Shown here in pieces: positions 1 to 17,019 of a stretch of DNA of 64,000 nt. The stretch spans positions 7,325-71,324 of IMG/VR virus record IMGVR_UViG_3300037245_002727, one strand, 5' to 3'. The notes under the pieces were generated by a model. The model ran no database searches and was not told the origin of the DNA. It saw only the letters and a program-made list of their open reading frames with translations. The position numbers and the translations under genes were made by a program. This DNA comes from a virus. Position 1 is the stretch's first letter. The number at the start of each line of letters is the position of its first letter.

Positions 1-383
1 AAATCTTTAGATTTAGACTTATTATCATCTTTCTTATTTGTAGGCGAATCGCCTATGCAGGGTAGGCGAAAAATATTAGTAGTTATTTTCATGAATCTTT
101 TGCGACCATTGAAACCAACTATCTCGAGGACTTTTTTACTTTTAAGTCTGGCAATTGCTTTCGTAACCGATGTTTCATGTAAGCCTAATTTTTTTGAGAT
201 ATAGCTATTTGAAGCATAGCATATATTTTCTTTGTTTTGCTGAAGAGAATATATTAACGAAGCAACTAATGCTTCACCTGGCCTTATCTTTTCGGTTTGT
301 AGTAATTTGCATGGGACCATAATATAAAACAATTTTTCTTCTGGTTCATCAGATGTAAATTTTTCAGGTATCTCTAATTTCAT
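1..383 (-). CDS. HTH-domain phage replication protein (runs off the left edge)
   Basis: Not in the ORF track; translated by hand from ATG 383 after an AGGAGG SD: MKLEIPEKF...LIYSLQQNKENICYASNSYISKKLGLHETSVTKAIARLKSKKVLEI. This resembles the N-terminal wHTH of phage replication initiators. Confidence 0.6.
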   Translation of the reverse strand, partial: MKLEIPEKFTSDEPEEKLFYIMVPCKLLQTEKIRPGEALVASLIYSLQQNKENICYASNSYISKKLGLHETSVTKAIARLKSKKVLEIVGFNGRKRFMKITTNIFRLPCIGDSPTNKKDDNKSKSKD

Positions 384-391
384 CGAACCTC

Positions 392-1342
392 CTATAAATT
401 GTGGTTGAAGTTAATTGCTTGTCTTAATTCCAATATGTCTTGGGTAGTCATTTCACCGAGATCATTCGTTATGACATTGTTTAGTATCTCAGCATTCTGA
501 ACATGGTGTCTCATTAAGCGGTATAGTTCCAGGGCTTTTGTTTTTGACTTCGATCTTTTCGTTTTTCGACCGTTAATGTCTATTATATCATTGTCCATCA
601 TTATAAATAGATTGCGTATTTTCTTCTCTTTCAGGAGTAGTACTTGAGTTCTGGTAAAGGTAGTCCCAGAAGTACCTACACTACCATCACCAAATTTCCA
701 AACATCAAACGGCCCTTCGGAAACAAGACAATCTGTATAAGGTCGAACCGAATCAATGTTGTAGATCATTTCTTTTGGAGACAAAGGGACTGAGGTTTTT
801 CGAGGATGAAGGTATGGAAGCATTCTATCATCAATGGCTCGTGAAGTAAAAGAGTAAAGTATACGCCTATTATAATAAGGTATGATAATTCTAAATTTAT
901 ACTTGCCGACTGTAGACACGAATCGTAAGTCATATTTTCGAGTGAGTAAATGTGGATGGAAGCCACGCTTTTTGAGATACTCAGCATGAAGTACTGGTAT
1001 AGTTATTTGGGCTTCTGTAGGGAATAGATTTTTCCTATACCTTTTGGCAGCACCCTTTGGAGGTGGTAGTAATTTGAGATTAGCTACATCGAGATTCTTG
1101 AGTATTTTGGTGACTTGCTTCCGAGTGTAGTTAGTATACTCTTGAACTAAAGTAATGATAGAATGACCACCACACTTCCAACAAGTACATTTTAAATCTT
1201 CTACTCTCACTCCAAAATGATTAGTAGTATCTTCGCAGAAGATGCAATTCATACCTATCCATCCGGGTGCTATGTTTTTTCCACTTAGAGATATCTCAAC
1301 TCCAATGTCTTCTAAAAATTTGATTATATCCATTTCATCCAC
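392..1342 (-). CDS. DNA primase-like protein (Zn finger + TOPRIM)
   Basis: N-terminal CIFC..H..CWKC Zn-binding motif; TOPRIM motifs VSEGPFD and MMDND. Confidence 0.75.
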   Translation of the reverse strand: MDEMDIIKFLEDIGVEISLSGKNIAPGWIGMNCIFCEDTTNHFGVRVEDLKCTCWKCGGHSIITLVQEYTNYTRKQVTKILKNLDVANLKLLPPPKGAAKRYRKNLFPTEAQITIPVLHAEYLKKRGFHPHLLTRKYDLRFVSTVGKYKFRIIIPYYNRRILYSFTSRAIDDRMLPYLHPRKTSVPLSPKEMIYNIDSVRPYTDCLVSEGPFDVWKFGDGSVGTSGTTFTRTQVLLLKEKKIRNLFIMMDNDIIDINGRKTKRSKSKTKALELYRLMRHHVQNAEILNNVITNDLGEMTTQDILELRQAINFNHNL

Positions 1343-2914: not shown

Positions 2915-3220
2915 TTAAAAATGAGACACCCACGTTTTCAACTCTTCCATCACATGGTTGACAATGAAAGTTGGCCACCTTTTTTCGAGAAAATATTTTA
3001 CACTATTTTTCGTAATCAAACCGGTTTCCGTAGTTATCAAGTGAAAATATTCTTTTGGAGTATCGAGAACTATTGCTATTATTTTCTTTGACTCATTGCA
3101 TAAGTCAGAATACTCTCGAAATTTTGCGACCTTTTCAAAAGGACTTTGTTCTGTAGATGGGATACTATTTTCGATTGTTACCTCTCCGTCGTTTGAGTTT
3201 GGCTGTTGGGGTTTTGGCAA
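2915..3220 (-). CDS. Hypothetical protein (start uncertain)
   Basis: ORF co-directional with the operon. Confidence 0.5.
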   Translation of the reverse strand: MPKPQQPNSNDGEVTIENSIPSTEQSPFEKVAKFREYSDLCNESKKIIAIVLDTPKEYFHLITTETGLITKNSVKYFLEKRWPTFIVNHVMEELKTWVSHF

Positions 3221-3626
3221 TTTTGACTCTCCTTCTTTTAAGTGGTTTCGATTTCTTTTTTCTCCGAACTTTAAGTCCTGATTGGTGTTTTTCTGTTTTC
3301 AACTTGAGTACTTCCGAAGTTTCGATATAGTACTTTTGAATTATCGCTTTTACTTCTTGCTCAAATTGTCTACAACTTTTACAAGGGTTCCAATCTTCGA
3401 GATTCTTTTCATTAAACCGTCTTTGAAGACAATTTAATATATGCAATCTTTGCCGGTTGATGTCACAATAAAAAGTAGTAACTGGGTTGAAGTATTGGCA
3501 GGTATCGGAGTCAATTGATATTTTAGACTTCGTTACTTTGCATTTTTTTAGAAGATCTTCACCGACTTTCCGGACAGGATTCAAAATTTTGGAATCCATG
3601 AAGTGATAGCAGTATAGACATTTCAT
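3165..3626 (-). CDS. Cys-rich hypothetical protein with a very basic C-terminus
   Basis: CLYC and CKSC motifs; C-terminal LKVRR/LKRRR repeats. Confidence 0.65.
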   Translation of the reverse strand: MKCLYCYHFMDSKILNPVRKVGEDLLKKCKVTKSKISIDSDTCQYFNPVTTFYCDINRQRLHILNCLQRRFNEKNLEDWNPCKSCRQFEQEVKAIIQKYYIETSEVLKLKTEKHQSGLKVRRKKKSKPLKRRRVKIAKTPTAKLKRRRGNNRK

Positions 3627-3670
3627 AAAGAACCTTTCTGATTTAAGTTAGCAGTATAACAGCCTATAAC

Positions 3671-4579
3671 CTATAAGTCAATTTTTCTTTTGAGTTCGAC
3701 ATTAGGTATCTTCTCAAGCTTTGCCATAATTCCCTCTAGCTTGCCGGAAATCTCATTTCGAAAGTCATCATTATTTTTCAGTCTGTCTATACTTACTTTC
3801 TTCATTTCCCGTCTAAGTCTGCCAACTATCATGGTTAGTTTTTTGTCGTCTACTTCGCCACGCCACAGATCATCCCACTTGTCTATAAAGCGAGAGATAG
3901 AACCGACAGACTTTCCATGTAGTTCGTCACCGTCATCTTGACATTTGCTGTGCAAGTTGTCTATACGCTTCAGTAAGTCATTCCCAATAACTGTCACTGT
4001 CATTTCTTCCATCTCGTCTAACATACCTTTAATCTTGGAGACCTGCATTTGGTATGCCTTGCTGTCAAATACTTCGAGTCCTTTTGAAGGTACTCCGAAG
4101 TAGAAGGGAGTCCATCGAATATAAAATCGTTGCCTGATTTCTTTTTTACTCGGATAGAGTTCAGGGTGATATTCGTTGGGATATTTTTTCTTGAACTTTG
4201 CCTTGAGAGAAGTAATTGCTTCAGCAAGTATTTCTACCCTCTCATAAAACATCGGCATATATTCATTATTCAAGGTCTCTTCTACTTCGAGTATTTTATC
4301 TTGTGGGATTCGAAAAACAGAGTCAATAGGGAAGGGAAGTGAATTGTTTTTGACAAAGTACTTCGCTTTATTTTGTACTGTCAAGATATCATCTATCAGA
4401 GTTTTATCATGAAGTAAATCTTGGGTAGCTCTCACAATTTCCTTTGGAACTTTCTTGCCAAGTTTATTCTTATCAAACTTCGCGGAAGCAGTCCAAAAAC
4501 CTCTCTGAAAGTTAATCAGTACGCACTCATTTAGTTTGTCAATCCTTTGAGTCAAGTCAATGCTCGTATTTTTAGCCAT
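3671..4579 (-). CDS. DUF3150-like protein
   Basis: Length about 300 aa; the FW..SAK, SLPF...F.IP and YPS..EIR.RF...W segments resemble DUF3150 (recognised by eye). Confidence 0.55.
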   Translation of the reverse strand: MAKNTSIDLTQRIDKLNECVLINFQRGFWTASAKFDKNKLGKKVPKEIVRATQDLLHDKTLIDDILTVQNKAKYFVKNNSLPFPIDSVFRIPQDKILEVEETLNNEYMPMFYERVEILAEAITSLKAKFKKKYPNEYHPELYPSKKEIRQRFYIRWTPFYFGVPSKGLEVFDSKAYQMQVSKIKGMLDEMEEMTVTVIGNDLLKRIDNLHSKCQDDGDELHGKSVGSISRFIDKWDDLWRGEVDDKKLTMIVGRLRREMKKVSIDRLKNNDDFRNEISGKLEGIMAKLEKIPNVELKRKIDL

Positions 4580-6805: not shown

Positions 6806-8230
6806 CTAAACATCTATACGACGTTTCTTTAATTTAACTTTCTCTCCAATCATATCATCACTTTTAATAGTCCGTCCCTCTGACCATTTTTCCAGTCCCA
6901 CGATTTCCTCTTTCATAGTAGTGTATAGAGGCAACACGAATTTGCTTGCTTCTATAAGAGTTGAACCTCTCATTTCAGCATTGTGGCAGAGAGTTTCAAT
7001 TTCGCTACCCGACCAATGATCTGTTTTCGGAATGACTTTACATTGGTTGGGAGTCAATTGGAACTTGTCTATATAGTGATTCATGATCTTCTTCCGAACC
7101 TTTTCATTGGGTAGTCCGATATAAATCGGTGCGGTGTCCCAGCGGCCTGCTCGTAAGTACTCTGGAGGCAAACCACGGAAGGTGTTACAAGTACCACCGA
7201 TGTAGCATCCAGGCGGTCTATTCTGAAAGAACTCTAAGAATTGGCCGATTGCTCTGCTAGTTACTCCACTATCCATAGAACTACTTCCGCCGACTCCGGC
7301 AAATTGCTTTTCCATTTCATCGAAGACGAAATAACTATCACCCAATGACCATGCAAGGTCGATAAGTGCTTTGACGTTTTTGTCAGTTTCGCCATGATAC
7401 TTTGAGAATAGCTGACCTGTATTAATCATTAGAGTCAATTTTTTGGAAGCATATGCAAATGACTTCACCAACATTGTTTTACCACAGCCTGGAGGTCCGA
7501 TGAATAGTACACCTTTCGCATTGGGATTGTGAATTGTAGACATAACAAAATCTCTTGGAATGTCATAACCAATAATGTCTTCAGGTTTGACGGTTGGTTC
7601 GAGTACTGTAGCCAATCCAGAATTTTTAATTGCTTGACTTCTATAATCGTTTATCACTTTAATGTCAAACCTTTTCTCTTTTACAAGCGATAAATTATAG
7701 ACATTTTGCAATTCCCTTTTTGGCAAGCCTTTTGAGGCATTAACAATTTGCTTAAGGTCTTTGCCTTTCGGCATAAATTCTTTAGCCGGTGATGAATGCT
7801 CGATTATTTCCTGGATTTCTTCACTATCTGGAAGTTTTAACTCTATCATAGTGAAGTCATTTTTTAACTCAGCAGGTATTTTCTCGACAGGCGCTACCAC
7901 TACAATGGCTTTGCCTTCATTTGCCCAAACAGAAAATGAATCCTGTATTGTTTGGATAACCGGTGGCTTGTCTATAAACCAATGAAAGTTATACAGGAAT
8001 TTTACTGCTCGACCTTGAGTACTAGTTAACTCATTCAAAGGTTGTAATCCAGGCATTGGTCCAGCAGAGTCTAAACAATTCCAAGAGGTAACTTGGGCTT
8101 TACTACCATCTTTGAATTCAAAGTTTTCGATTGCTTCCTGAACACTCGTCTTCACTCGATCTGCTTCGGAAGTATTAATCCAGTAGCAAGGGAAGCCAGC
8201 TCGAAGATGGTCGATAAGTTGCTGACACAT
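6806..8230 (-). CDS. AAA+ ATPase, Ycf46/SpoVK-like
   Basis: Walker A GPPGCGKT, Walker B FVFDEMEK, SRH LPPEYLRAGRWD, SGSEIE lid; degenerate N-terminal AAA domain typical of Ycf46. Confidence 0.85.
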   Translation of the reverse strand: MCQQLIDHLRAGFPCYWINTSEADRVKTSVQEAIENFEFKDGSKAQVTSWNCLDSAGPMPGLQPLNELTSTQGRAVKFLYNFHWFIDKPPVIQTIQDSFSVWANEGKAIVVVAPVEKIPAELKNDFTMIELKLPDSEEIQEIIEHSSPAKEFMPKGKDLKQIVNASKGLPKRELQNVYNLSLVKEKRFDIKVINDYRSQAIKNSGLATVLEPTVKPEDIIGYDIPRDFVMSTIHNPNAKGVLFIGPPGCGKTMLVKSFAYASKKLTLMINTGQLFSKYHGETDKNVKALIDLAWSLGDSYFVFDEMEKQFAGVGGSSSMDSGVTSRAIGQFLEFFQNRPPGCYIGGTCNTFRGLPPEYLRAGRWDTAPIYIGLPNEKVRKKIMNHYIDKFQLTPNQCKVIPKTDHWSGSEIETLCHNAEMRGSTLIEASKFVLPLYTTMKEEIVGLEKWSEGRTIKSDDMIGEKVKLKKRRIDV

Positions 8231-8326
8231 AATAAATCCTCCTATTGTATAGGTAAATCATAATTGAGATACCTGCGGAAAGTAGTCAAACTTAACTAAT
8301 TGCTTGACTACCCTGCCCGGTTTCAA

Positions 8327-8578
8327 TCAAAAGGGTGATAAAAAGGGAAGGTAGATAAAATTTTCGCTACCAAGATATTTTCGATATTCCTGTAATTCTT
8401 TCATGGCTTGCTTATAGTTAAATCTATCAACAAGATATGGTGTTGGAGTTTCCTCTTCTTGGACTAAGACAAGAAAATGTTTATCTTTATCGAAGTCAAG
8501 AACAGAATCCATTTCCCGAAATCCATGAAATGACTTCTCTTCTTCTTTCCTTCTAACAACGGTTTCTTTCAATTCCAT
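8327..8578 (-). CDS. Hypothetical protein (cassette)
   Basis: SD leader; the stop lies in the repeat end. Confidence 0.7.
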   Translation of the reverse strand: MELKETVVRRKEEEKSFHGFREMDSVLDFDKDKHFLVLVQEEETPTPYLVDRFNYKQAMKELQEYRKYLGSENFIYLPFLSPF

Positions 8579-8670
8579 TTTTAATCCTCCTATTTGGTAG
8601 GTACTTCATAATTGAGATACCTGCTGAAGGTAGACAATCCTTTCAGATTGCCTACCCTGCCCGGTTTCAA

Positions 8671-9051
8671 TTAATCGTCATACATCAATACCAGTTTAAC
8701 ATCACCGTTTGGGAGTGTTACTTCTGAGTAGTCGGTAACTTCCATCCAATCAATTGCTTGGGTGACTTCTTCTTTCCAGTAACCTTGAATGCATTTGGAT
8801 AAAGTTTCCATACTCAGTTGGCCGTTTTTAGCGCCCCAATGGTCATATTTTACATCACCTTCATTTGTCACTGCGATTGGGTATTTCCAATCGGGTAGCA
8901 GACAAGAAGCAATACAAGGGACTTTGTTACTACCATATTGGTCGATAAGATGCTTGCCTGTCTGGATTTGAGTAGCTCCAATGTCTTTACAAGTTTTCAG
9001 AAAGAGGAGAGCATTCTTGATATTCGCTTCATAAGTATAGATATGAGACAT
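8671..9051 (-). CDS. DUF1257 (Ycf35)-like protein
   Basis: MSH...IKN N-terminus, YD.WG motif and C-terminal L.NG.VKL are typical of DUF1257. Confidence 0.6.
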   Translation of the reverse strand: MSHIYTYEANIKNALLFLKTCKDIGATQIQTGKHLIDQYGSNKVPCIASCLLPDWKYPIAVTNEGDVKYDHWGAKNGQLSMETLSKCIQGYWKEEVTQAIDWMEVTDYSEVTLPNGDVKLVLMYDD

Positions 9052-9245
9052 TATTCGAATCCTTTCGTTTTAAAATGTTCAACGATAGAAGTATGGTTTA
9101 CGACTGCTTTCGCCGCTTCTATCATCACTTCGAATGAATCAGCTTCCGGAGTACACTTTGAAAGTATTTTAACTAGTCTTGCACATTTTTGACCATAGGC
9201 TGATTCGTTTATTAACTGTTCGAATATTTTCGTTCTTTTGGACAC
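9051..9245 (-). CDS. Hypothetical protein
   Basis: SD AGGAG; stop/start coupled to the next gene. Confidence 0.55.
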   Translation of the reverse strand: MSKRTKIFEQLINESAYGQKCARLVKILSKCTPEADSFEVMIEAAKAVVNHTSIVEHFKTKGFE

Positions 9246-9267
9246 TTTTATATCTCCTAGTTAATAG

Positions 9268-9468
9268 TTATCCACACCACCCAGAAGGCAACCCGTTTGA
9301 AATGTTATCTTCTTCTTGGTAGTACTCGTCTTTTACTTCACTCTCGACAGGTTCACCAAAAAGATCATCCAAAAAGGCTGTCTTTTGTAGACATGCGGCA
9401 CCTTTGAAGTCAAATGCTTCTCTCTTAATTTTACCATCTTTGGTAATTGTTATTTCGACTCTTGGCAT
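9268..9468 (-). CDS. DUF2997-like protein
   Basis: VEITI..DG.I......F.G..C...T..L...G.......EYY pattern. Confidence 0.65.
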   Translation of the reverse strand: MPRVEITITKDGKIKREAFDFKGAACLQKTAFLDDLFGEPVESEVKDEYYQEEDNISNGLPSGWCG

Positions 9469-9559
9469 GAAATCCTCCTATATAGTATTAGGTAACTCAT
9501 AATTGAGATACCTGCGGAAGGTAGTCAAACATAAGCTTGACTACCCTGCCCGGTTTCAA

Positions 9560-9739
9560 TTATTCATTTAGTTTTTCTTTCGGGATTATAAGTTCGATGG
9601 TGCCATTTTCCCATTCGCGAGATATTATGTCGCGAGTAGTTTCGTCTAAAATAGCTACCTCATTAATCCAGATTAGAAAAACTTTTCCAATGAGACCTTC
9701 CTTTTCCGCTGCTTTGTATGGAATTGAAATTGATTTCAT
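9560..9739 (-). CDS. Hypothetical 59-aa protein (not in ORF track)
   Basis: Hand translation MKSISIPYKAAEKEG...EKLNE*; SD AGGAG; the TAA forms the repeat end. Confidence 0.6.
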   Translation of the reverse strand: MKSISIPYKAAEKEGLIGKVFLIWINEVAILDETTRDIISREWENGTIELIIPKEKLNE

Positions 9740-9748
9740 AATAGGCTC

Positions 9749-9961
9749 CTAGTAAATCGGTTTGCCTTGTCTCGCGACGTCTCTTTGCATTGCTTTCATA
9801 TCTTGCTTGATTGTAATTTGCCGTTTATGATGGGTGAAGCAGTATTTCGCTTCTGGTACTTTAGCAAGCAAGTTTAGCTTGAGACCTTTATTACAAATGA
9901 GACAAAAACGTTTTGTCGATACTTCGCGAAAATTAAACGGTTTTCTGGAAGTTGCTGACAT
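9749..9961 (-). CDS. Small Zn-finger-like protein (cassette)
   Basis: Likely start MSATSRK after the SD; CLIC..CFTH. Confidence 0.6.
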   Translation of the reverse strand: MSATSRKPFNFREVSTKRFCLICNKGLKLNLLAKVPEAKYCFTHHKRQITIKQDMKAMQRDVARQGKPIY

Positions 9962-10052
9962 AATAAATCCTCCTATATCTGGTAACTCATAATTGAGATA
10001 CCTGCCAGATAGACAAGTCATATAGACCATTGTCTATCCTGCCCGGTTTCAA

Positions 10053-10247
10053 TTACTTCTTTTTTTCTTTGGCTTTTTTGTAAATTTGTAATGTTTTTAA
10101 AGACATGTAGATAACTTCTTCAACATCGGTTATGAAGCCACAGACTTGACAAATTTCTTCATCACCTTCTATTATACTGTAACAATGCCCACAAGCATAG
10201 TCATCGTTGGGACTGTCTATAATATGAATTAAGCAAGTTGTTCCCAT
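10053..10247 (-). CDS. Small Zn-ribbon protein (cassette)
   Basis: CGHC...CQVC. Confidence 0.65.
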   Translation of the reverse strand: MGTTCLIHIIDSPNDDYACGHCYSIIEGDEEICQVCGFITDVEEVIYMSLKTLQIYKKAKEKKK

Positions 10248-10339
10248 TTTTAATCCTCCTATTTGGTAGGTACTTCATAATTGAGATACCTGCTGAAGGT
10301 AGACAATCCTTTCAGATTGCCTACCCTGCCCGGTTTCAA

Positions 10340-10546
10340 TTAGTCGTCTGTATCGTCTTCGACGATTTCAATGATGATTCTTTTTGGCATGTTTTTGACT
10401 TTCTCTTTGTCAAAGTAGATGGTGCCAGAGATAGGCTCCGAGTAGTCACCAACCTTAAAACGCGCTTTTCTTTTGGTATCTTTCTCGAAAACTGCTTCAA
10501 CAACCATTTCATCTGATTTCTTTTTACTACTTGCTTTCTTCGCCAT
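10340..10546 (-). CDS. Hypothetical protein (cassette)
   Basis: SD; stop at the repeat end. Confidence 0.7.
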   Translation of the reverse strand: MAKKASSKKKSDEMVVEAVFEKDTKRKARFKVGDYSEPISGTIYFDKEKVKNMPKRIIIEIVEDDTDD

Positions 10547-10641
10547 GATTGAAAATCCTCCAATGTAGTTATAGGCACTTCATAATTGAGATACCTGCCA
10601 GGTAGACAAGTCATATAGACCATTGTCTACCCTGCCCGGTT

Positions 10642-10794
10642 TCAATTGATAATATTAAATAGTTTTGCCATACTGGTATAGTATTCTTTATCAAGTCTAT
10701 ATGTCATAAGTCGATTCCAGCGATACATAACCTTTTCAGCATGGCCGAAGTTGAAGTTAAATCGAAAAATTAAAAGGCAAATAAATAGTTTCAT
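10642..10794 (-). CDS. Hypothetical 50-aa protein (not in ORF track)
   Basis: Hand translation MKLFICLLIF...LFNIIN*; the TGA lies inside the repeat. Confidence 0.45.
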   Translation of the reverse strand: MKLFICLLIFRFNFNFGHAEKVMYRWNRLMTYRLDKEYYTSMAKLFNIIN

Positions 10795-10796
10795 TT

Positions 10797-11000
10797 TTAC
10801 CCCATGTAGTCATTTCGGATGACGTTAATGCCGTGGATGCGTACTCCATGCTTTCTGATATGTCTCTTGAATATCTTGCCATACGGCACCCCTTTATAGG
10901 ATTTCCGTACCATGACGGTTTTGGCATTACTACTGACGATTTCGACAACCCTTGCGATTCCATCAACTCTGGCATGTCCAAATAAAATAGCGGTATTCAT
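10797..11000 (-). CDS. Small basic protein (cassette)
   Basis: Follows the AGGAGGATT leader. Confidence 0.65.
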   Translation of the reverse strand: MNTAILFGHARVDGIARVVEIVSSNAKTVMVRKSYKGVPYGKIFKRHIRKHGVRIHGINVIRNDYMG

Positions 11001-11090
11001 AATAAATCCTCCTATGCATTAGATAACTCATAATTGAGATACCTGCGGAAGGTAGTCAAAGTTTCCCTTGACTACCCTGCCCGGTTTCAA

Positions 11091-11267
11091 TTAGGTTTTC
11101 TTATTTCTTTTCGCCATAAGGAGTACTGTTATCGCATTCAACTCTCGAACAGACATGCGAAGTAATCCACTTTGAGTGTCTACCCATTCACTTCTCTCCG
11201 GTAGATAAGCATTTGGCCGAAGTAGTTCAAGAATATTTTCAATCATTTCCATTTTTCGCTTTCCCAT
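11091..11267 (-). CDS. Hypothetical protein
   Basis: Start MGKRK after GGAGGAG. Confidence 0.6.
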   Translation of the reverse strand: MGKRKMEMIENILELLRPNAYLPERSEWVDTQSGLLRMSVRELNAITVLLMAKRNKKT

Positions 11268-11269
11268 GA

Positions 11270-11437
11270 TTAACTCCTCCATGTAGTTGACTTCATTGCA
11301 TCGACAATTTTACTATCTTCTATAATTGAGTCATCTTGACATTTTGAATCGCTACAAACTGTTTTTCCAGTAGCATATGCAAGATGAATATTTTTACCAG
11401 AGTCAATGAATTCTTTTTTACAGAAGTCACATTTCAT
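11270..11437 (-). CDS. 55-aa Cys-rich protein (not in ORF track)
   Basis: Hand translation MKCDFCKKEF...VCSDSKC...WRS* after the cassette leader. Confidence 0.6.
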   Translation of the reverse strand: MKCDFCKKEFIDSGKNIHLAYATGKTVCSDSKCQDDSIIEDSKIVDAMKSTTWRS

Positions 11438-11532
11438 TTTTTAATCCTCCTATTTGGTAGGTACTTCATAATTGAGATACCTGCGAAAGGTAGTCAAACC
11501 AAATTGCTTCAGCTTGACTACCCTGCCCGGTT

Positions 11533-11682
11533 TCAATTAATCATTTCCCAGAACTTATAAAACAACGCTTTGAAGTCAAACCTTTTTGCGAGGTAGTTAT
11601 AAGTTAAGTTGATGATATCGAGCATTCCAAGTAGTGCAAGGAATGCGATAATAAACATAAGCCATCCGGATAACTGCATCAT
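11533..11682 (-). CDS. 49-aa membrane peptide (not in ORF track)
   Basis: MMQLSGWLMFIIAFLALLGML...; SD GAGGAG; the TGA lies inside the repeat. Confidence 0.5.
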   Translation of the reverse strand: MMQLSGWLMFIIAFLALLGMLDIINLTYNYLAKRFDFKALFYKFWEMIN

Positions 11683-11684
11683 TT

Positions 11685-12011
11685 TTAGACTCCTCTTTTA
11701 TGTTTATGGCAGAAAAGAATATTATTAATCCCGGCTACATGGAATGAATCGTTATAAAGCATTGACTCACCACATTTGCCACAGTTTAACTCGAAGTCGG
11801 TAGTCAATTCACGATTGTTCTCTTGAGTTAAATAAGCGAATTCTTTCAGGCCGCGTTTTACAGGAACTTTAAAATTTTTCGGCGCTGTTTTCCAGGTTTT
11901 GCACTTTCCATTGACTCTCCATCGTTGTGGAGTGCCGTCGGCATTGCATTGAAAGATGTGAAAAATTTCTGTTCCAATTGATAGTGCCATTGCGGTTTCC
12001 TTGTTTATCAT
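11685..12011 (-). CDS. Hypothetical protein with a C-terminal Cys/His cluster (cassette)
   Basis: SD leader; CGKC...CHKH. Confidence 0.7.
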   Translation of the reverse strand: MINKETAMALSIGTEIFHIFQCNADGTPQRWRVNGKCKTWKTAPKNFKVPVKRGLKEFAYLTQENNRELTTDFELNCGKCGESMLYNDSFHVAGINNILFCHKHKRGV

Positions 12012-12086
12012 CTTTAATCCTCCTATATGTAGTATAACACATAATTGTGTTACCTGCCGAAGGTAGTCAAACCGTTTAAAGCTTGA

Positions 12087-12545
12087 CTACCCTGCCCGGT
12101 TATACAATTTAGCGTAATATGCATTTGGAGTGGAGAAGTAAATGTCCCGAGTTCCTTTATAGTAAAAGCCACTTGAGACAGATATTTTTTGCAATTCCGA
12201 AGGCTGAATTCCGACTGCTTCATAATAGCTACCAGACTTTCTATCAGTAGTAACCAAATGATTTTCGAAAGTTAACATTTTGCCTTTCTTGTTTTCTGTT
12301 TGGCCAGTTACTAGGTAGCAGAATTCTAATTCGTCTCTCATTAATCTGTCGTTATGAACTTCTCTCATTCCGTCTAAGAAAGCGGAGATGTGTCGAGGAG
12401 TTCCTTTCGGCAAGTTCTTTTTGATTTCCAAAAATCTCTCATTAATTGTATCTGAAGTCAAATGAGAGAAACGAGCACTTGAAAATAAAGAGTTAACGGC
12501 TGATTTCGCACTTGTCTGGACATTGCTTTGTCTATTATAATTCAT
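12087..12545 (-). CDS. Hypothetical protein reading into variant repeat 13
   Basis: SD leader; the TAG stop lies inside the hairpin. Confidence 0.7.
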   Translation of the reverse strand: MNYNRQSNVQTSAKSAVNSLFSSARFSHLTSDTINERFLEIKKNLPKGTPRHISAFLDGMREVHNDRLMRDELEFCYLVTGQTENKKGKMLTFENHLVTTDRKSGSYYEAVGIQPSELQKISVSSGFYYKGTRDIYFSTPNAYYAKLYNRAG

Positions 12546-12644
12546 TGTAAATCCTCCTATTTGGTAGGTACTTCATAATTGAGATACCTGCGGAAGGTAG
12601 TCAAACTTAAGTACTCGCTTGACTACCCTGCCCGGTTTCAATCG

Positions 12645-13010
12645 TTAAAAAATGTGTACTGTGTACGCCACTTTAATGATTTTTCCATCGGTTTCGATTA
12701 CTCCCATAGCGTCTAAAGTGGCGATAATAACTGAAATATAACCGCCACAAGTAGCTTGCATATCAGGTCCGCCAGATTTGACTCTTAAGTTATTGGCATA
12801 TTTGGCGACTTTGAGCGCGGTGAAACTTTTCATTTGGGAGTAATGTTTGAAGGACTTTGCGACGGCTTCACTCACTGTCAGAACACCGTTGGGCGGAGAG
12901 AAGTAGTTTGAAGATTTCCCAATTTGCTTGTCTGCGACTTTCTCCAACTTCTCGAAAGTTTGCTTCATGGTCGAAAAACTTTTCTCTAATTGTTTGGCTT
13001 CGCTTAACAT
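12645..13010 (-). CDS. Hypothetical protein (cassette)
   Basis: SD leader. Confidence 0.7.
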   Translation of the reverse strand: MLSEAKQLEKSFSTMKQTFEKLEKVADKQIGKSSNYFSPPNGVLTVSEAVAKSFKHYSQMKSFTALKVAKYANNLRVKSGGPDMQATCGGYISVIIATLDAMGVIETDGKIIKVAYTVHIF

Positions 13011-13109
13011 TTTTAAATCCTCCTATTTAAGTTAGATAACTCATAATTGAGATACCTTCGTAAGTAGTCAAACCGTTTAAAGCTTGACTACTCCGAGCCG
13101 GTTTCAATT

Positions 13110-13376
13110 TTAGAAAGTCTTAGACATTTCAAGATTTTTAATTGATAGAGTAAGTTTTTCCCCACAGTCTGAACAAGTACTTTTGGCAGTGTTAACAGTA
13201 GGCCAAACTACCCAATTGACTTCATGGCAACATTTGAGACACCGATGCTCACTTTTATAAACATTATAATCGACGCCAGTTGTCTTCTCGATATAGTTAC
13301 AAGAAAGTTTTTCAGTATTAAGAACTATGCGAGTCATTTTGTTTTTACCCATAGAGATATTCATAACACTAGACAT
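13110..13376 (-). CDS. Zn-ribbon protein (cassette)
   Basis: CLKC...CSDC. Confidence 0.7.
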   Translation of the reverse strand: MSSVMNISMGKNKMTRIVLNTEKLSCNYIEKTTGVDYNVYKSEHRCLKCCHEVNWVVWPTVNTAKSTCSDCGEKLTLSIKNLEMSKTF

Positions 13377-13467
13377 TTTTAATCCTCCTATTTGGTAGGT
13401 ACTTCATAATTGAGATACCTGCTAAAGGTAGTCAAACTATATGTTTGACTACCCTGCCCGGTTTCAA

Positions 13468-13803
13468 TTACTTATAATTTTTAACACCTTTCAGCTTTCG
13501 TTTGGTATTACGACGAATTCTTTTACCTATAAGATCTGTATCAATACCTTTATCTCGAAGGTAGATAAAAAACTGTCGAATTGTTTTACTTCCCTTCATG
13601 GAGTTACATGTTTTACAACATGTTACCAGATTACTTGCTGAGTTATCACCACCAAGTTCTTGAGAGATAATATGGTCGAGAGTTAAAATCGAGTTTTCAG
13701 GAGCATTGCCACAGTAGATACATTTTAAATTGTCTCTTTTGTAGATTGCATGTCTCTTGAGAGTTCGAATCCATTTGCCACCATTATTAGCTATATTAGC
13801 CAT
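13468..13803 (-). CDS. HNH endonuclease (cassette)
   Basis: RD..KCIYCG...TLDHII....GG....NLVTCCKTCN..KG. Confidence 0.9.
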   Translation of the reverse strand: MANIANNGGKWIRTLKRHAIYKRDNLKCIYCGNAPENSILTLDHIISQELGGDNSASNLVTCCKTCNSMKGSKTIRQFFIYLRDKGIDTDLIGKRIRRNTKRKLKGVKNYK

Positions 13804-13889
13804 GATATATCCTCCTATTGGGTACTTCTTAATTGAGATACCTGCTAAAGGTAGTCAAACCTTTTTAAGCTTGACTACCCTGCCCGGTT

Positions 13890-14111
13890 TCAATCTCTAT
13901 CGGTAAACATTCCAGTTGTATAGTTAACAGTTTTGAAGTATATCTTCAAGTTTTCCATATCACTTCCATGGCATTCGTTGGAGAAGGTTGTAAAATCATC
14001 GGCTTCCACTAAGTCTTCAAAAAGCATTATTTTATTATCGTCATCTTTGAGATACTTTTTTAGAGACTTGCCAGTCGTTTTGTATGTCACTATTCTTAAT
14101 ATTCCAAACAT
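13890..14111 (-). CDS. Hypothetical protein (cassette)
   Basis: SD; the TGA lies inside the repeat. Confidence 0.7.
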   Translation of the reverse strand: MFGILRIVTYKTTGKSLKKYLKDDDNKIMLFEDLVEADDFTTFSNECHGSDMENLKIYFKTVNYTTGMFTDRD

Positions 14112-14200
14112 ATTTAACTCTCCTATGTATGAGGTATTCGTAATTGAGATACCTGCGGAAGGTAGTCAAAGTTTCCCTTGACTACCCTGCCCGGTTTCAA

Positions 14201-14503
14201 TTAAATAACTTCGATGATATATCTCATATAATCGTAACCTTGAGTATCGACTAAATAAAACTTATCATCAACTACTAAAATAAACTTTTGGAAACCTGGT
14301 TTGAAGTCAAAGTCCAGAGTTAAATAATTGTGCATGTTGTTATTATCATGCCACAGAACTTCGGACTTAAGTTCAGGAAAGCAATTTAAGTTATAAGGGA
14401 TTTCAGGAACTTCGATGTTTCCAATGTCTTCGATTGTATGAGGTTTATGAGTCATTTCATCCAGGAAGTCAATGTCAGTAACGTTTTGGGGATTCTTTTT
14501 CAT
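14201..14503 (-). CDS. Hypothetical protein, first gene of the array
   Basis: SD AAGGAG; C-terminal VDTQGYDYMRY. Confidence 0.7.
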   Translation of the reverse strand: MKKNPQNVTDIDFLDEMTHKPHTIEDIGNIEVPEIPYNLNCFPELKSEVLWHDNNNMHNYLTLDFDFKPGFQKFILVVDDKFYLVDTQGYDYMRYIIEVI

Positions 14504-14519
14504 TTTTTTCTCTCCTTAT

Positions 14520-15217
14520 TTGTTTGTAGTTAAGTAGCCAACAAGTACTTCAGACATAGTTTCGCAGAGATATCTAATGCTACTGTATATCTCTGAAGCA
14601 CTTAGTAATACTTAACTTCATAGGAGGAGGATTTTTTGTCTGCGAGTTACTTTTTCATGCAATTAGGCAAGTTGTAAGTATTGGAGATAACTTGCAAGCA
14701 AGTACTTTTCACCCGGTATTGTGCTTTATAACTAATCACCTTTATAACGCTCACATGTGAGTTATTTCCCCATTGTAGAATTTTCAATGCGGGAAAGCGT
14801 TTTTAATACCTTGAAAGTATACTTGTCACCAAGTAGCAAGGTAATCAGTAGCACATCGACTTGTGAGCCAAACGCCAACATTTGACTCTTTCACCGTCTT
14901 CAATCATCAACCCTTCGGCTGACTTGCGGTTACTTAGATTACTTAAGTTTTCGAAAGCAGTTTAATCAGAGTTAAGTTGTAAAATCGACGCGGTTCCAAA
15001 TTATCGGTAATCATCAAAAGTGGGAGCGTTGTCAGCCACTATAACTATTTTACGATAATTACTTACTTTCGTAATAAGATTTTTTGTTGCTTAAGGTATA
15101 TTTGGAAACCGTTATTTTGTGACTTGTTATCACTCCAAAGTTTCTTGGGTGATAGAGTAGGTTTCGTCCACTCTGTGGCTACCCCTTCGGCCTATGAATT
15201 GACTGACCGAAGTCAGA
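14520..15217 (-). ncRNA. Candidate large structured non-coding RNA / 5' leader
   Basis: No credible ORF; at least 10 local and long-range helices; a cUUCGg tetraloop at the 5' end on the minus strand (see findings). Confidence 0.55.
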
Positions 15218-15220
15218 CAT

Positions 15221-15248
15221 AAGATAATACGCGAAGGCTTCTTGTCAA
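15221..15248 (-). promoter_or_regulatory. Candidate sigma70 promoter for the ncRNA and cassette array
   Basis: TTGACA-N16-TATCTT on the minus strand, with A-tracts upstream that resemble an UP element. Confidence 0.5.
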
Positions 15249-15639
15249 GTATATATATGGGATTTTTTAATCTTTTTTTAGCCTTCAGGCAAATACCAAG
15301 TGATTTTAGGTACTTACGAAGGCAATTATTTTCTATTTTCAAGTGATAATAATGCTTGGAACCTATACAGACTGACACATGGTGATATAAAAATAGGCCC
15401 AAAAACAGCGGTTTTGTCAAGGTTTATACAAATAGCGCCAGAAATGGAGTTTTAACCGTGATTCAGCCTGAAGCCTTATTCCATAGGCTTTTGGGCAGGA
15501 AATTTATTTTAAATTATTTTGATTTATTTTACGATTTCACGAGATTCGCATTACTTTGGCATATAAATTTCAAAAGTAATGGACTTAGGCTGAATTCAGG
15601 GTAGATGCTTATGTGGTATAGCTTTGGAGGCTGTTTTAA

Positions 15640-15810
15640 CCGCCATAACGGGTATTCTGTTAATTATAGGGGTATTCTACCTGCTATATGCGTATTCTAC
15701 CTGCCACAGCCTATTTTACAGCCATGGTGGTTACGATAGGGGTATTCTATAGCCATGGTGGTTACGACATGCTGTGGTGGTTACGATAGGGGTATTCTGT
15801 TAACGATATG
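15640..15810. repeat. Cluster of short direct repeats (GTATTCT x5, GGTGGTTACGA x3)
   Basis: Seen directly, e.g. GGTGGTTACGATAGGGGTATTCT occurs twice. Confidence 0.7.
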
Positions 15811-15859
15811 CCTTCATAGTAACCACATCACTTGATAATATTGGACTTTCGCAATCTGT

Positions 15860-16200
15860 ATTGAAATTCATATGAATTCATATCATTTGCTAAAACCACT
15901 TGGATATATGCTTATAGGCTTTTAACTGCTTTGACTTCATTTCAATTTTCATTTCATTTCAACTGCTTTTATTTACTCGAATGTTATTGCCAGGTTGTTT
16001 AACCTTTCAAAGCGATTGAATTCATTTCAATTTGAAAGTCATAATGAAAAATTGAAGTGTAGGTTGCTTACTGGTATACTTATAGGCTTCATTTCATATG
16101 AATTCATATCATATCATTTCAATTGCTTTTAATACATATATGCACTGCTATAGCATACACATTGTTTTTAACTCTTCATTTCATTGGCTTTCATATGACA
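15860..16200. repeat. AT-rich TTTCA / TTCATATGAATTCATATCAT repeats
   Basis: Multiple TTTCA units; TTCATATGAATTCATATCAT occurs twice. Confidence 0.6.
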
Positions 16201-16434
16201 TGAAGGTTTGAAAGTAACTTCATAGCACTCTCGTTTGGGTATTCTCTCATAGAGTAAAATGAGACAAAAAGGGGAAGGGCAGTTGGTTTGCCTATAAACA
16301 GATAGACAAGCTTTGCTCAAAAACCTGTAGAGACATAGCAGTGAAGGCGACTTGATAAGAGGGAAGGAGTATGCTACAATTGACTCTCTTAAATCAATTG
16401 TTTCAATACTTAACTTTAACAGATAGGAGTTATC

Positions 16435-17019
16435 ATGGCGCAAAGATTACAATTTAGAAGGAAGCATAAGCGAGTTAATAACTTGTCGAGGAGTTATAAC
16501 AAGCGAGGGTTTCGTGAAGGCAAGTTAACTAATGCGGTTAGACGGTCAATCTTCGAGGCGGTTAGAATTGGTATGACTGAGTATCGAGCAGCCGAAATGG
16601 CAGGCATAACAAAGAAGACATTTGGTAAATGGTTAGATAGGGGGAGGCGAGAGAAACGAGGGAAGTATCACAACTTTCGTAAGAACCTGAAAATGATTAG
16701 TAAGAGTAGAGAGCATGAAGCACTTGAAGTCATTCGCAAGTGCGGGACAGGTATGTATACAGTAGTCGAAAAGAAGATAAAGACTTCAGGTGTAGGTACG
16801 TTAAAACAGACAGAAGTAGAAGTAAAAGAGAAAGTAATACTACCACAATGGCAAGCCCATGCGTGGTATCTTGAGAGGCTTCATAAGGAAACATATGGGA
16901 AGGAAGCAGTACTTGATGAAGCTACTCCAGAAGAGAGAGCACGAACAATTAATCAACTAGTTAAAGCAATGGATTTGAGCGTCCCAGCACCACGCGGAGG
17001 TAATGATGGAGATAGCTAA
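16435..17019 (+). CDS. Terminase small subunit
   Basis: HTH-like AAEMAGITKKTFGKW, WQAHAWYLER motif; immediately upstream of TerL. Confidence 0.75.
   Translation: MAQRLQFRRKHKRVNNLSRSYNKRGFREGKLTNAVRRSIFEAVRIGMTEYRAAEMAGITKKTFGKWLDRGRREKRGKYHNFRKNLKMISKSREHEALEVIRKCGTGMYTVVEKKIKTSGVGTLKQTEVEVKEKVILPQWQAHAWYLERLHKETYGKEAVLDEATPEERARTINQLVKAMDLSVPAPRGGNDGDS

Follow-up and report, generated by a model that had tools for sequence, protein, structure and literature searches.

A large structured RNA between the promoter and the first early gene of an uncultured marine-sediment phage

What is contained in the 1.9-kb gap that separates the leftward and rightward genes of an uncultured marine-sediment phage, and what could it do there? 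The question is raised by a stretch of 64,000 nucleotides (nt) of the IMG/VR virus record IMGVR_UViG_3300037245_002727 (positions 7,325 to 71,324), hereafter the window, which represents 64 kb of a 71-kb record. The leftward genes of the window extend from 14503 down to its start and the rightward ones from 16435 on, beginning with TerS (16435), TerL (17003) and portal (19020). An earlier note, made from the letters alone, had proposed that a large structured non-coding RNA of the minus strand occupies this divergent gap and heads the leftward array. The analysis presented here shows that the region is indeed a real structured RNA of ~710 nt, encoded on the minus strand with a promoter before it and the first early gene behind it. 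The asymmetry of folding z-scores between the strands, the compensatory evolution of the stems, the absence of a coding sign and the conservation of the promoter all agree with the proposal.

The minus strand of the region 14504-15240 (737 nt) folds with -194.1 kcal/mol, compared with -156.9 +/- 5.7 kcal/mol for 20 dinucleotide shuffles (z -6.5), and none of the 20 shuffles folded as well. The plus strand of the same region gave a z-score of -2.9. This was the comparison with shuffled sequences that had been suggested as a check of the proposal. The sliding 200-nt z-score profile was too noisy to mark the limits of the RNA, because its pairs are long-range. The promoter-like sequence TTGACA-N16-TATCTT, which the earlier note had placed upstream of the region, was found at 15248-15221 on the minus strand, and its -35 and -10 positions are kept in the relatives L002 (TTGACA-N16-TACTTT) and L099 (TTGACT-N17-TATTGT) described below. 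From its position, transcription would start near 15214-15216. The scan of 9000-17000 for terminator-like sites revealed none between the RNA and the ATG at 14503, and the RNA is probably co-transcribed with the early array. The RNA region is present in a single copy within the record.

The RNA is known from four sequences that form two clades, namely the window, L002, L088 and L099. L002 has a TerL 92% identical to that of the window and an RNA that is 79-81% identical and cut within the terminal hairpin, while L088 is a 1050-nt contig without about the first 95 nt of the RNA. L099 (5645 nt), from a TerL clade with ~71% identity, contains the RNA at full length (~785 nt, 3048-3836), and L004 and L101 are partial copies. 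L088 and L099 were found in metagenomes by a motif-plus-spacing pattern, which gave 26 loci, three of them confirmed by nhmmer; five genome contigs from a further pattern scan were all chance matches. The other DNA pattern scans returned L002 only, L002 and L004 only, or L002 with one chance match, and one of them gave no match in the metagenomes. The TerL-based scans of IMG/VR yielded one close locus and 80 loci at 46-71% TerL identity, and nhmmer with the RNA recovered only L002 among these 80 TerL loci. When the model R1 was run over 98 + 17 sources, strong matches (136-162 bits) were obtained in the four known members only, and the three other matches were at chance level (E 0.56, 2.9 and 2.6). 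A distant-mode blastn search of GenBank phages gave no DNA match, and the portal protein of the window is only ~33% identical to that of the nearest cultured phages. The window stretch itself is present in contigs of one sequencing run (X1), a marine sediment DNA metagenome, the look-up of runs having returned no RNA run, and the X1 contigs hold several variants of the RNA, one of them L002-like.

The relatives were used for covariation tests designed against circularity: the minimum free energy (MFE) fold of a single sequence was taken, and the fate of its pairs under the substitutions of another sequence was then followed. When the window MFE fold (208 pairs) was placed on L002, 120 pairs were unchanged, nine were kept after a one-sided change, 12 were changed on both sides and 18 were broken, whereas the shuffled null gave 2.3 double changes (maximum 9 in 1000 shuffles) and 35.5 +/- 4.0 broken pairs. 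On L088, the same fold had 124 unchanged pairs, 18 kept after a one-sided change, 11 changed on both sides and 23 broken, against null values of 2.3 double changes and 37.5 broken pairs. An earlier two-sequence run of the window against L002 had given 14 double changes and 18 broken pairs; over all these runs the nulls lay at 2.2-2.3 double changes (maxima of 7-9 in 1000 shuffles) and 35-37 broken pairs. The signal on L099 was weaker (29 double changes versus 18.4 in the null, and 82 broken pairs versus 99.5 +/- 6.0), and the alignment there is poor. The reciprocal tests were concordant with one exception, the L088 fold on L002, in which eight double changes were counted (reached by 1 of 1000 shuffles) but the 29 broken pairs did not represent a reduction from the expected 31.8. 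Compensatory change above the shuffled nulls was thus found in three relatives, which answers the call of the earlier note for covariation in homologues.

The RNAalifold consensus of the three close sequences comprises 149 pairs in 23 helices, with 97.5% of the cells paired. Both sides have changed in 27 of the 149 pairs, a number that none of the 500 shuffles reached and that compares with 0-2 in slid controls, and 15 of the 23 helices contain at least one compensatory change. It should be noted that this consensus was derived from the same alignment and is therefore biased in its own favour, a bias of which the single-sequence tests are free. In the 3' core, a four-sequence consensus across both clades has 15 pairs, eight of them changed on both sides and none broken.

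The compensated helices also bear on the strand. Their cells include 43 G-U combinations versus 3 A-C ones, and 1x1 A-C interruptions are absent. On the plus strand, the window-derived fold gave no covariation signal (4 double changes, 42 broken pairs), and the L002-derived fold gave one, as mirrored helices predict. The RNA was assigned to the minus strand because of the G-U excess, the z-score asymmetry and the promoter. The two strands of L099 fold alike (z -5.0 and -4.8), so that the energy-based strand argument depends on the window alone. This equality is also a point for the alternative that the region acts as DNA, for instance as an origin, a packaging site or a set of single-strand hairpins, for which the location in a 1.9-kb divergent gap beside iterons (15655-15798) and TerS would be natural. 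We nevertheless consider such an element very improbable: the preference for G-U over A-C, the far better folding of the window minus strand and the conserved promoter directed into the region all speak for RNA, and the iterons lie outside the RNA and are not conserved in the relatives.

Even less credible is the alternative that the region codes for a small protein or is a decayed gene. An open reading frame (ORF) of 31-39 codons (MLAFGS..) is present in the window and L002 and lies within a 116-codon ORF in L088, but it is absent from L099, and no ORF is common to all four sequences. The substitutions are spread evenly over the codon positions (35-38 each) without periodicity. The indels relative to L002 measure 1, 2, 2, 5, 1, 16 and 1 nt, six of the seven not being multiples of three; relative to L088 they measure 1, 9 and 16 nt, and only the 9-nt deletion is divisible by three, the other two of the three not. 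The covariation of the stems argues in the same direction, and the search of PHROGs gave no match for an overlapping ORF of 96 amino acids (aa) at 15130-15420. Behind GGAGGAGGA, a small ORF of the plus strand (from 14637 on) was dismissed as well, being frameshifted in L002 and lacking a start codon in L099.

The size of the RNA had led the earlier note to compare it with ROOL and GOLLD, and the size range is indeed a fair match; the models of these two families did not recognise the RNA. Nothing in the whole window reached the gathering score of Rfam 15, and with E values up to 10 the region 13500-17000 gave only six unrelated chance-level matches, with no ROOL or GOLLD among them. With E up to 5, L099, L088 and L002 gave only three unrelated matches, again neither ROOL nor GOLLD. 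The covariance models of ROOL, GOLLD, OLE, HEARO and raiA had no match in the window, the region or the three relative loci. The models of group I and group II introns and small ribozymes likewise gave no match, and the region is situated between a promoter and a start codon and is not intragenic; the Rfam check for ROOL, GOLLD and the introns, as the earlier note had envisaged it, was thereby negative for the region. No match within the RNA was obtained with models of riboswitches, T-boxes and ribosomal-protein leaders, and the Rfam C4 model had none in the window or the region. An S15-leader match (E 0.84) was discarded, as it lies inside the TerL gene of L002 and below threshold. A limited literature search found no published description of this RNA, and it is chiefly on the basis of Rfam 15 that we call it new. 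We have filed it as a class of its own among the large structured RNAs of phages, distinguished by its position and by a module complementary to Shine-Dalgarno (SD) sequences, the anti-SD block. Its parts, from the promoter to the start codon of the first gene, are the following.

15221-15248, minus strand: sigma-70-like promoter TTGACA-N16-TATCTT, scoring 10/12, directly upstream of the RNA.
14504-15215, minus strand: the whole untranslated structured RNA of ~710 nt, from the presumed start to the base before the ATG.
15203-15216, minus strand: 5'-terminal hairpin CUGAC-UUCG-GUCAG, the stem of which covaries in L002 (C-G to U-A, G-C to A-U).
15182-15198, minus strand: SD-like 5' strand UUCAUAGG(CCGAA)GGGG, a possible partner of the 3' anti-SD block in the helix P1.
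15128-15154, minus strand: hairpin UAUCAC..GUGAUA (helix 2), with four pairs changed on both sides in three sequences.
14952-15071, minus strand: long composite arm (helices 5-10), with nine double changes over helices 5, 6, 7, 9 and 10.
14865-14930, minus strand: two hairpins (helices 11-13); both sides of four pairs have changed in helices 11-12, and helix 13 shows two one-sided G-U changes.
14720-14858, minus strand: conserved multi-branch domain, which opens with CGAUGUGCUAC and contains hairpin 17, the variable hairpin 18 and the palindromic hairpin 19.
14643-14715, minus strand: 3' core domain (helices 20-22), with 8 of 15 pairs compensated and none broken across both clades.
14620-14637, minus strand: invariant 18-mer AAAAAAUCCUCCUCCUAU, the anti-SD block, shared without change by the four sequences, even by the distant L099.
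14529-14616, minus strand: long terminal hairpin of 88 nt with ~33 pairs, which between the window and L088 show 3 double changes, 4 one-sided changes and 3 breaks.
14504-14528, minus strand: linker with the first-gene SD AAGGAGAG (14510-14517), followed by the ATG.

The 5' third of the RNA is variable, and the 3' 450 nt form a conserved core of several domains, in which the stems covary and the loops are conserved in sequence. The 5' hairpin region is kept within the window clade and is not alignable with L099; no homology is claimed for the 5' third of L099, as its MAFFT alignment to the window clade is unreliable. The 3' core, meanwhile, is among the few non-coding stretches that can still be aligned between the window and L099. 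It contains an internal loop, nearly symmetric and with GAAAAGUA on either strand, and a conserved CCUAA. A hairpin with a GUGA (GNRA) tetraloop is located at 14820-14835 inside the multi-branch domain, and L099 retains this loop and the spacing of the motifs on different stems (UACUUG/CAAGUA replaced by GCAUA/UAUGU). The terminal hairpin of L099 is 134 nt long, has another stem sequence and carries an apical expansion rich in GAAGUAA. The multi-branch domain of the window also includes a 12-nt perfect palindrome CUCACAUGUGAG (14750-14761), which reads UCCACAUGUGGA in L088 and so covaries, is imperfect in L002 and is absent from L099. It could form a hairpin or an intermolecular duplex; its candidacy as a dimerisation site was dropped, as L002 has lost the palindrome and L099 lacks it.

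About half of the individual helices proposed in the earlier note stood up to the comparison with the relatives and about half did not, several being replaced by better-supported alternatives. GCAAGTT/AACTTGC (14667-14695) corresponds to helix 22, CTCACATGTGAG to helix 19 and TATCAC..GTGATA, with its four double changes, to helix 2, and the nested hairpin at 14529-14616 is the terminal hairpin listed above, with 33 pairs compared between the window and L088. In the pairing of TTCCC and CATTG with CAATG and GGGAA, the TTCCC/GGGAA part is retained as helix 18, and the CATTG/CAATG tip is deleted in the relatives. The minus-strand cUUCGg hairpin is present at 15203-15216 and its stem covaries, but the UUCG loop is not kept and reads ACCU in L002. 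Substitutions in L002 and L088 break both AGTGG/CCACT and TTACGA/TCGTAA, whose place is taken by the long composite arm. Two long pairings gave way to mutually exclusive helices that are compensated: CGGTTCCAAAT/ATTTGGAAACCG to helices 5-10 and the long CAAGTACTTTTCA..GGTATT pairing to helices 15-17. The helix proposed to close a domain of about 580 nt, between TTCATAGG at 14617-14624 and CCTATGAA at 15191-15198, was located correctly and is the helix that we call P1. Its sequences, like those of AGAGT/ACTCT, are invariant, and the closing helix is without a counterpart in L099.

The 18-mer has candidate partners in the array that the RNA heads. A repeat of ~85 nt precedes most of the small leftward genes (9-14 copies depending on the core, 8212-14155). 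On the minus strand it comprises a hairpin GGUAGUCAA..UUGACUACC, a promoter-like TTGACT-N18-AATTAT, a small CCUA..UAGG hairpin and the ribosome-binding site (RBS) AUAGGAGGAUU. Its layout resembles the PeSL promoter/stem-loop cassettes described for T4-type phages (PMC2839356, PMC4122927), and L099 has cassettes of the same type as the window array. The 18-mer is antisense to the cassette RBS. Perfect complementarity of 8-10 nt is found in 13 of the 22 leftward genes, versus 4 of the 32 late genes and 1 of the 6 right-arm genes, and the L099 cassettes also carry AUAGGAGGAU. The earlier note had supposed that the RNA might be linked to the hairpin repeats. The link exists for the RBS of the repeat, to which the 18-mer is antisense, and none was found for its hairpin; in the array region the model R1 gave one chance-level match only (8170-8262, plus strand, E 2.9).

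When their 3' segments are folded in isolation, the window, L088 and L099 are all predicted to form a helix between the anti-SD and the first-gene SD at the base of the long hairpin, and full-length MFE folds predict it as well. The competing P1 duplex is calculated at -15.3 kcal/mol in the window and -16.2 kcal/mol in L002, and the pairing of the anti-SD with the first-gene SD in the window is far weaker than P1 (-8.7 kcal/mol). Forcing either state in the window resulted in -182.7 versus -188.1 kcal/mol, a gap of 5.4 in 188.

The reading that we tentatively favour, giving it somewhat less than an even chance, is that of a large leader RNA whose anti-SD module gates the translation of the early genes. 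The folded RNA would be a riboregulatory leader in which the anti-SD block has two mutually exclusive partners, the 5' strand of P1 or the first-gene SD. In the P1 state the SD-like 5' strand would be paired, the large domain closed and the ribosome-binding site free; in the other state the anti-SD would lie on the first-gene SD and initiation would be blocked. A released anti-SD may also pair with the near-identical RBS AUAGGAGGAUU before most genes of the leftward array. The long hairpin at 14529-14616, which is not followed by a U-tract, is a candidate processing site for a double-strand-specific (RNase III-type) enzyme. Its cleavage would uncouple the anti-SD from the SD and would free the upstream domain as a stable RNA of ~620 nt. 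A factor that shifts the fold would set the time window of early-gene translation, the candidates being the succession in which the RNA folds during transcription or a protein that binds the AAGUAA loops.

The leaders of lambda N and of the T7 early transcripts, which are processed by RNase III, offer a parallel for the proposed cleavage. As in them, a long imperfect hairpin stands directly before the RBS of an early transcript, and cleavage could change the access to the RBS and set free an upstream RNA. The stems cut by RNase III in such leaders span about two helical turns, and the hairpin predicted here has ~33 pairs. Unlike in them, the upstream part is a large conserved fold and not a short nut-type site, and there is no sequence similarity.

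Several observations weigh against the gating of translation by such a leader. The evidence comes from four sequences in two clades, and the start site, the 3' end and the processing of the RNA are predictions. The pairings of the anti-SD, the SD and P1 are beyond the reach of covariation, because their sequences do not vary. In L099, where P1 has no counterpart, the best upstream partner of the anti-SD reaches -8.2 kcal/mol versus -9.5 kcal/mol for the SD, so the switch may apply to a single clade or be mistaken. Late genes, too, can have AUAGGAGG in front of them (TerS of L099, and 4 of the 32 late genes in the window), and the complementarity may partly reflect a strong generic SD. Finally, translational leaders and switches of known kinds need far less than 700 nt, and the size of the RNA, together with conserved loops distant from the SD, points to a further function.

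The missing P1 of L099, the presence of AUAGGAGG before late genes and the excess size are the reasons why we give nearly equal weight to another explanation, which we regard as possible if doubtful. According to it, the RNA is an ornate stand-alone molecule with a function in trans, and the leader position is a means of early and abundant production. It might form an RNA-only assembly like the homo-oligomeric nanocages of ROOL and GOLLD, or serve as a multi-site sponge or scaffold for a host or phage protein that binds unpaired AAGUAA. The large size and the dense covarying structure would suit such a molecule, as would the conserved GNRA tetraloop, the purine-rich internal loops and the stronger conservation of loops than of stems (82% of the unpaired versus 73% of the paired columns are invariant). 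The finding of different first genes behind the same RNA, in L088 and in X1 variants, also fits a self-contained module.

The AAGUA motif would suit the sponge or scaffold variant. It occurs 9 times in the window RNA (1.9 expected, z 5.4) and 14 times in the L099 RNA (2.8 expected, z 7.0). With 12.6-17.7 copies per kb in the RNA versus 2.6-3.5 per kb elsewhere in the phage, the motif is enriched four- to six-fold. At least four conserved copies are unpaired, and tandem unpaired AAGUAA motifs stand at ~14931-14944, immediately 5' of helices 11-13. In L099 the motif is expanded in the tip of the terminal hairpin, where five GAAGUAA copies are found, and one more copy lies between the SD and the AUG. 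Several other copies in the window, however, are mere stem halves paired with UACUU.

The stand-alone explanation also leaves the strictly invariant anti-SD beside the SD unexplained, and the RNA has no terminator of its own. The comparison with GOLLD and ROOL is divided in the same manner. Like them, the RNA is borne by a phage, belongs to the size class of 600-800 nt and has an elaborate structure supported by covariation; as in GOLLD, the 3' region is conserved and the 5' region variable, and GOLLD was reported to pull down ribosomes (features as given for these families in PMC12286853). Unlike them, it is the promoter-proximal leader of an early operon with an invariant anti-SD beside the SD, it is not matched by their covariance models even permissively, and ARAGORN detected no tRNA genes across the 64-kb window, although a tRNA neighbourhood is typical and not obligatory for ROOL and GOLLD.

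A third explanation, which we consider unlikely, places the function of the leader in cis in transcription or stability, either as a processive antiterminator similar to put or EAR, which would carry RNA polymerase past the hairpins between the array genes, or as a passive, heavily paired 5' UTR that protects 700 nt of untranslated RNA from Rho and RNases. Its promoter-proximal place is in line with this, as the RNA invariably heads an operon with strong hairpins between the genes, and so is the lack of terminator-like sites between the RNA and the first gene. The 5'-terminal hairpin is also of a recognised stabiliser type. But a promoter-like site is present at each gene of the array, so that read-through is perhaps unneeded, and the intergenic hairpins of the array are without U-tracts. 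The scan of 9000-17000 yielded just two terminator-like sites, a smaller number than shuffled sequences gave; the plus strand holds the two of them, and they lie outside the repeats. Antiterminator RNAs of known kinds measure 65-120 nt, and a passive shield would not leave loops more conserved than stems.

The favoured gating of early-gene translation has a variant of its own, which we likewise consider improbable. Here the RNA would be an RNA-only timer whose 18 nt form a master anti-RBS, locked in P1 and later shutting off the early class in trans. The fold would be opened by an early protein accumulating on the AAGUAA loops or by cleavage of the long hairpin, and the freed antisense would pair in trans with the RBS AUAGGAGGAUU that the cassettes of at least a dozen early genes have in common. 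If true, this would be the equivalent of the C4/CI antisense systems on a larger scale and with many targets, co-evolving with a PeSL-like mobile cassette array.

The C4 RNAs of P1 and P7, CI of P4 and CB of N15 are roughly 70-80 nt long, against ~710 nt here. They belong to the immunity of temperate elements, whereas the array of the window is apparently a lytic early one, and the Rfam C4 model does not match the RNA. The position is similar, as the RNA lies upstream in the operon of its putative targets and is complementary to downstream leader or RBS sequences. Pairing and processing of the C4/CI/CB kind are putative here, and the motif overlaps a generic strong SD. C4 of P1 is a precedent for the favoured reading, being an antisense RNA that is encoded in the leader and directed at genes further down the same operon (PMC8198154), and the antisense leader RNAs of P1, P7, N15 and P4 are listed together in PMC7567579. 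The same source describes a non-coding RNA of ~800 nt from an ORF-less gap of the Vibrio phage ICP1 and the PLE transcript IIR, which is homologous in antisense to leaders found at several ORFs within the same element. The RNA of the window resembles the former as a large transcript candidate from an ORF-less phage gap, and ICP1 is a lytic phage. The ICP1 and PLE RNAs were found by RNA-seq and come without a covariation-supported structure, whereas the structure here was derived by comparing sequences.

Large, intricately folded RNAs of bacteria and phages are rare and nearly all without a known function. The context of this one is readable: it has a defined promoter, stands first in an early operon of the take-over type and contains an invariant element with candidate RBS targets, so that, unlike that of ROOL or GOLLD, its function can be tested directly. 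The anti-RBS model, if true, would represent a novel mode of phage control, with one RNA acting on an entire gene class; if it is false, the RNA remains a compact new target for work on RNA structure. The immediate reach is limited by the small size of the family, four sequences in two clades of uncultured sediment phages.

The first early gene and the borders of the RNA differ among the relatives.

14201-14503, minus strand: first early gene of the window, 100 aa, without a match in family searches.

The first genes of the window and L099 share the C-terminal motif GYDYMRYI. A scan with the first-gene protein gave no matches, and an alignment-based scan brought up a 244-aa protein with the same C-terminal motif, which was rejected as unrelated and has no RNA upstream. 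The sole first-gene homologue besides the window's own protein is P0122 (120 aa, 61% identity). The 7217-nt JGI contig that encodes it is probably part of a further relative and may hold a fifth copy of the RNA. In L088 the first gene differs, the ORF at 3-407 (minus strand) having a signal peptide and a match to DUF1254 (E 3.3e-5). This change would stem from a genuine exchange of cassettes at the RBS or else from a chimeric assembly, the latter being possible in such a short contig. Among the X1 variants, one has another RBS and gene start after 14519, another diverges just beyond 14712, and in a fourth the segment 14890-15023 is swapped for 138 other letters. In view of the different first gene of L088 and of the divergence of X1 variants after 14519 and beyond 14712, the borders of the RNA seem to be recombination points, as would be expected of a cassette-type early region.

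Direct repeats are located between the promoter of the RNA and TerS, at 15655-15798 (units of GGGGTATTCT and CCATGGTGGTTACGA) and at 15861-16201 (AT-rich, of the TTCATTTCA type), and may represent an origin or a packaging site. The repeat stretch 15655-16201 cannot be aligned with L002, and L004 and L099 hold different repeats in its place. On the other side of the RNA, a gene of an HNH endonuclease is found two or three genes downstream in both clades, at 13468-13803 (minus strand) in the window and at 4263-4622 in L099.

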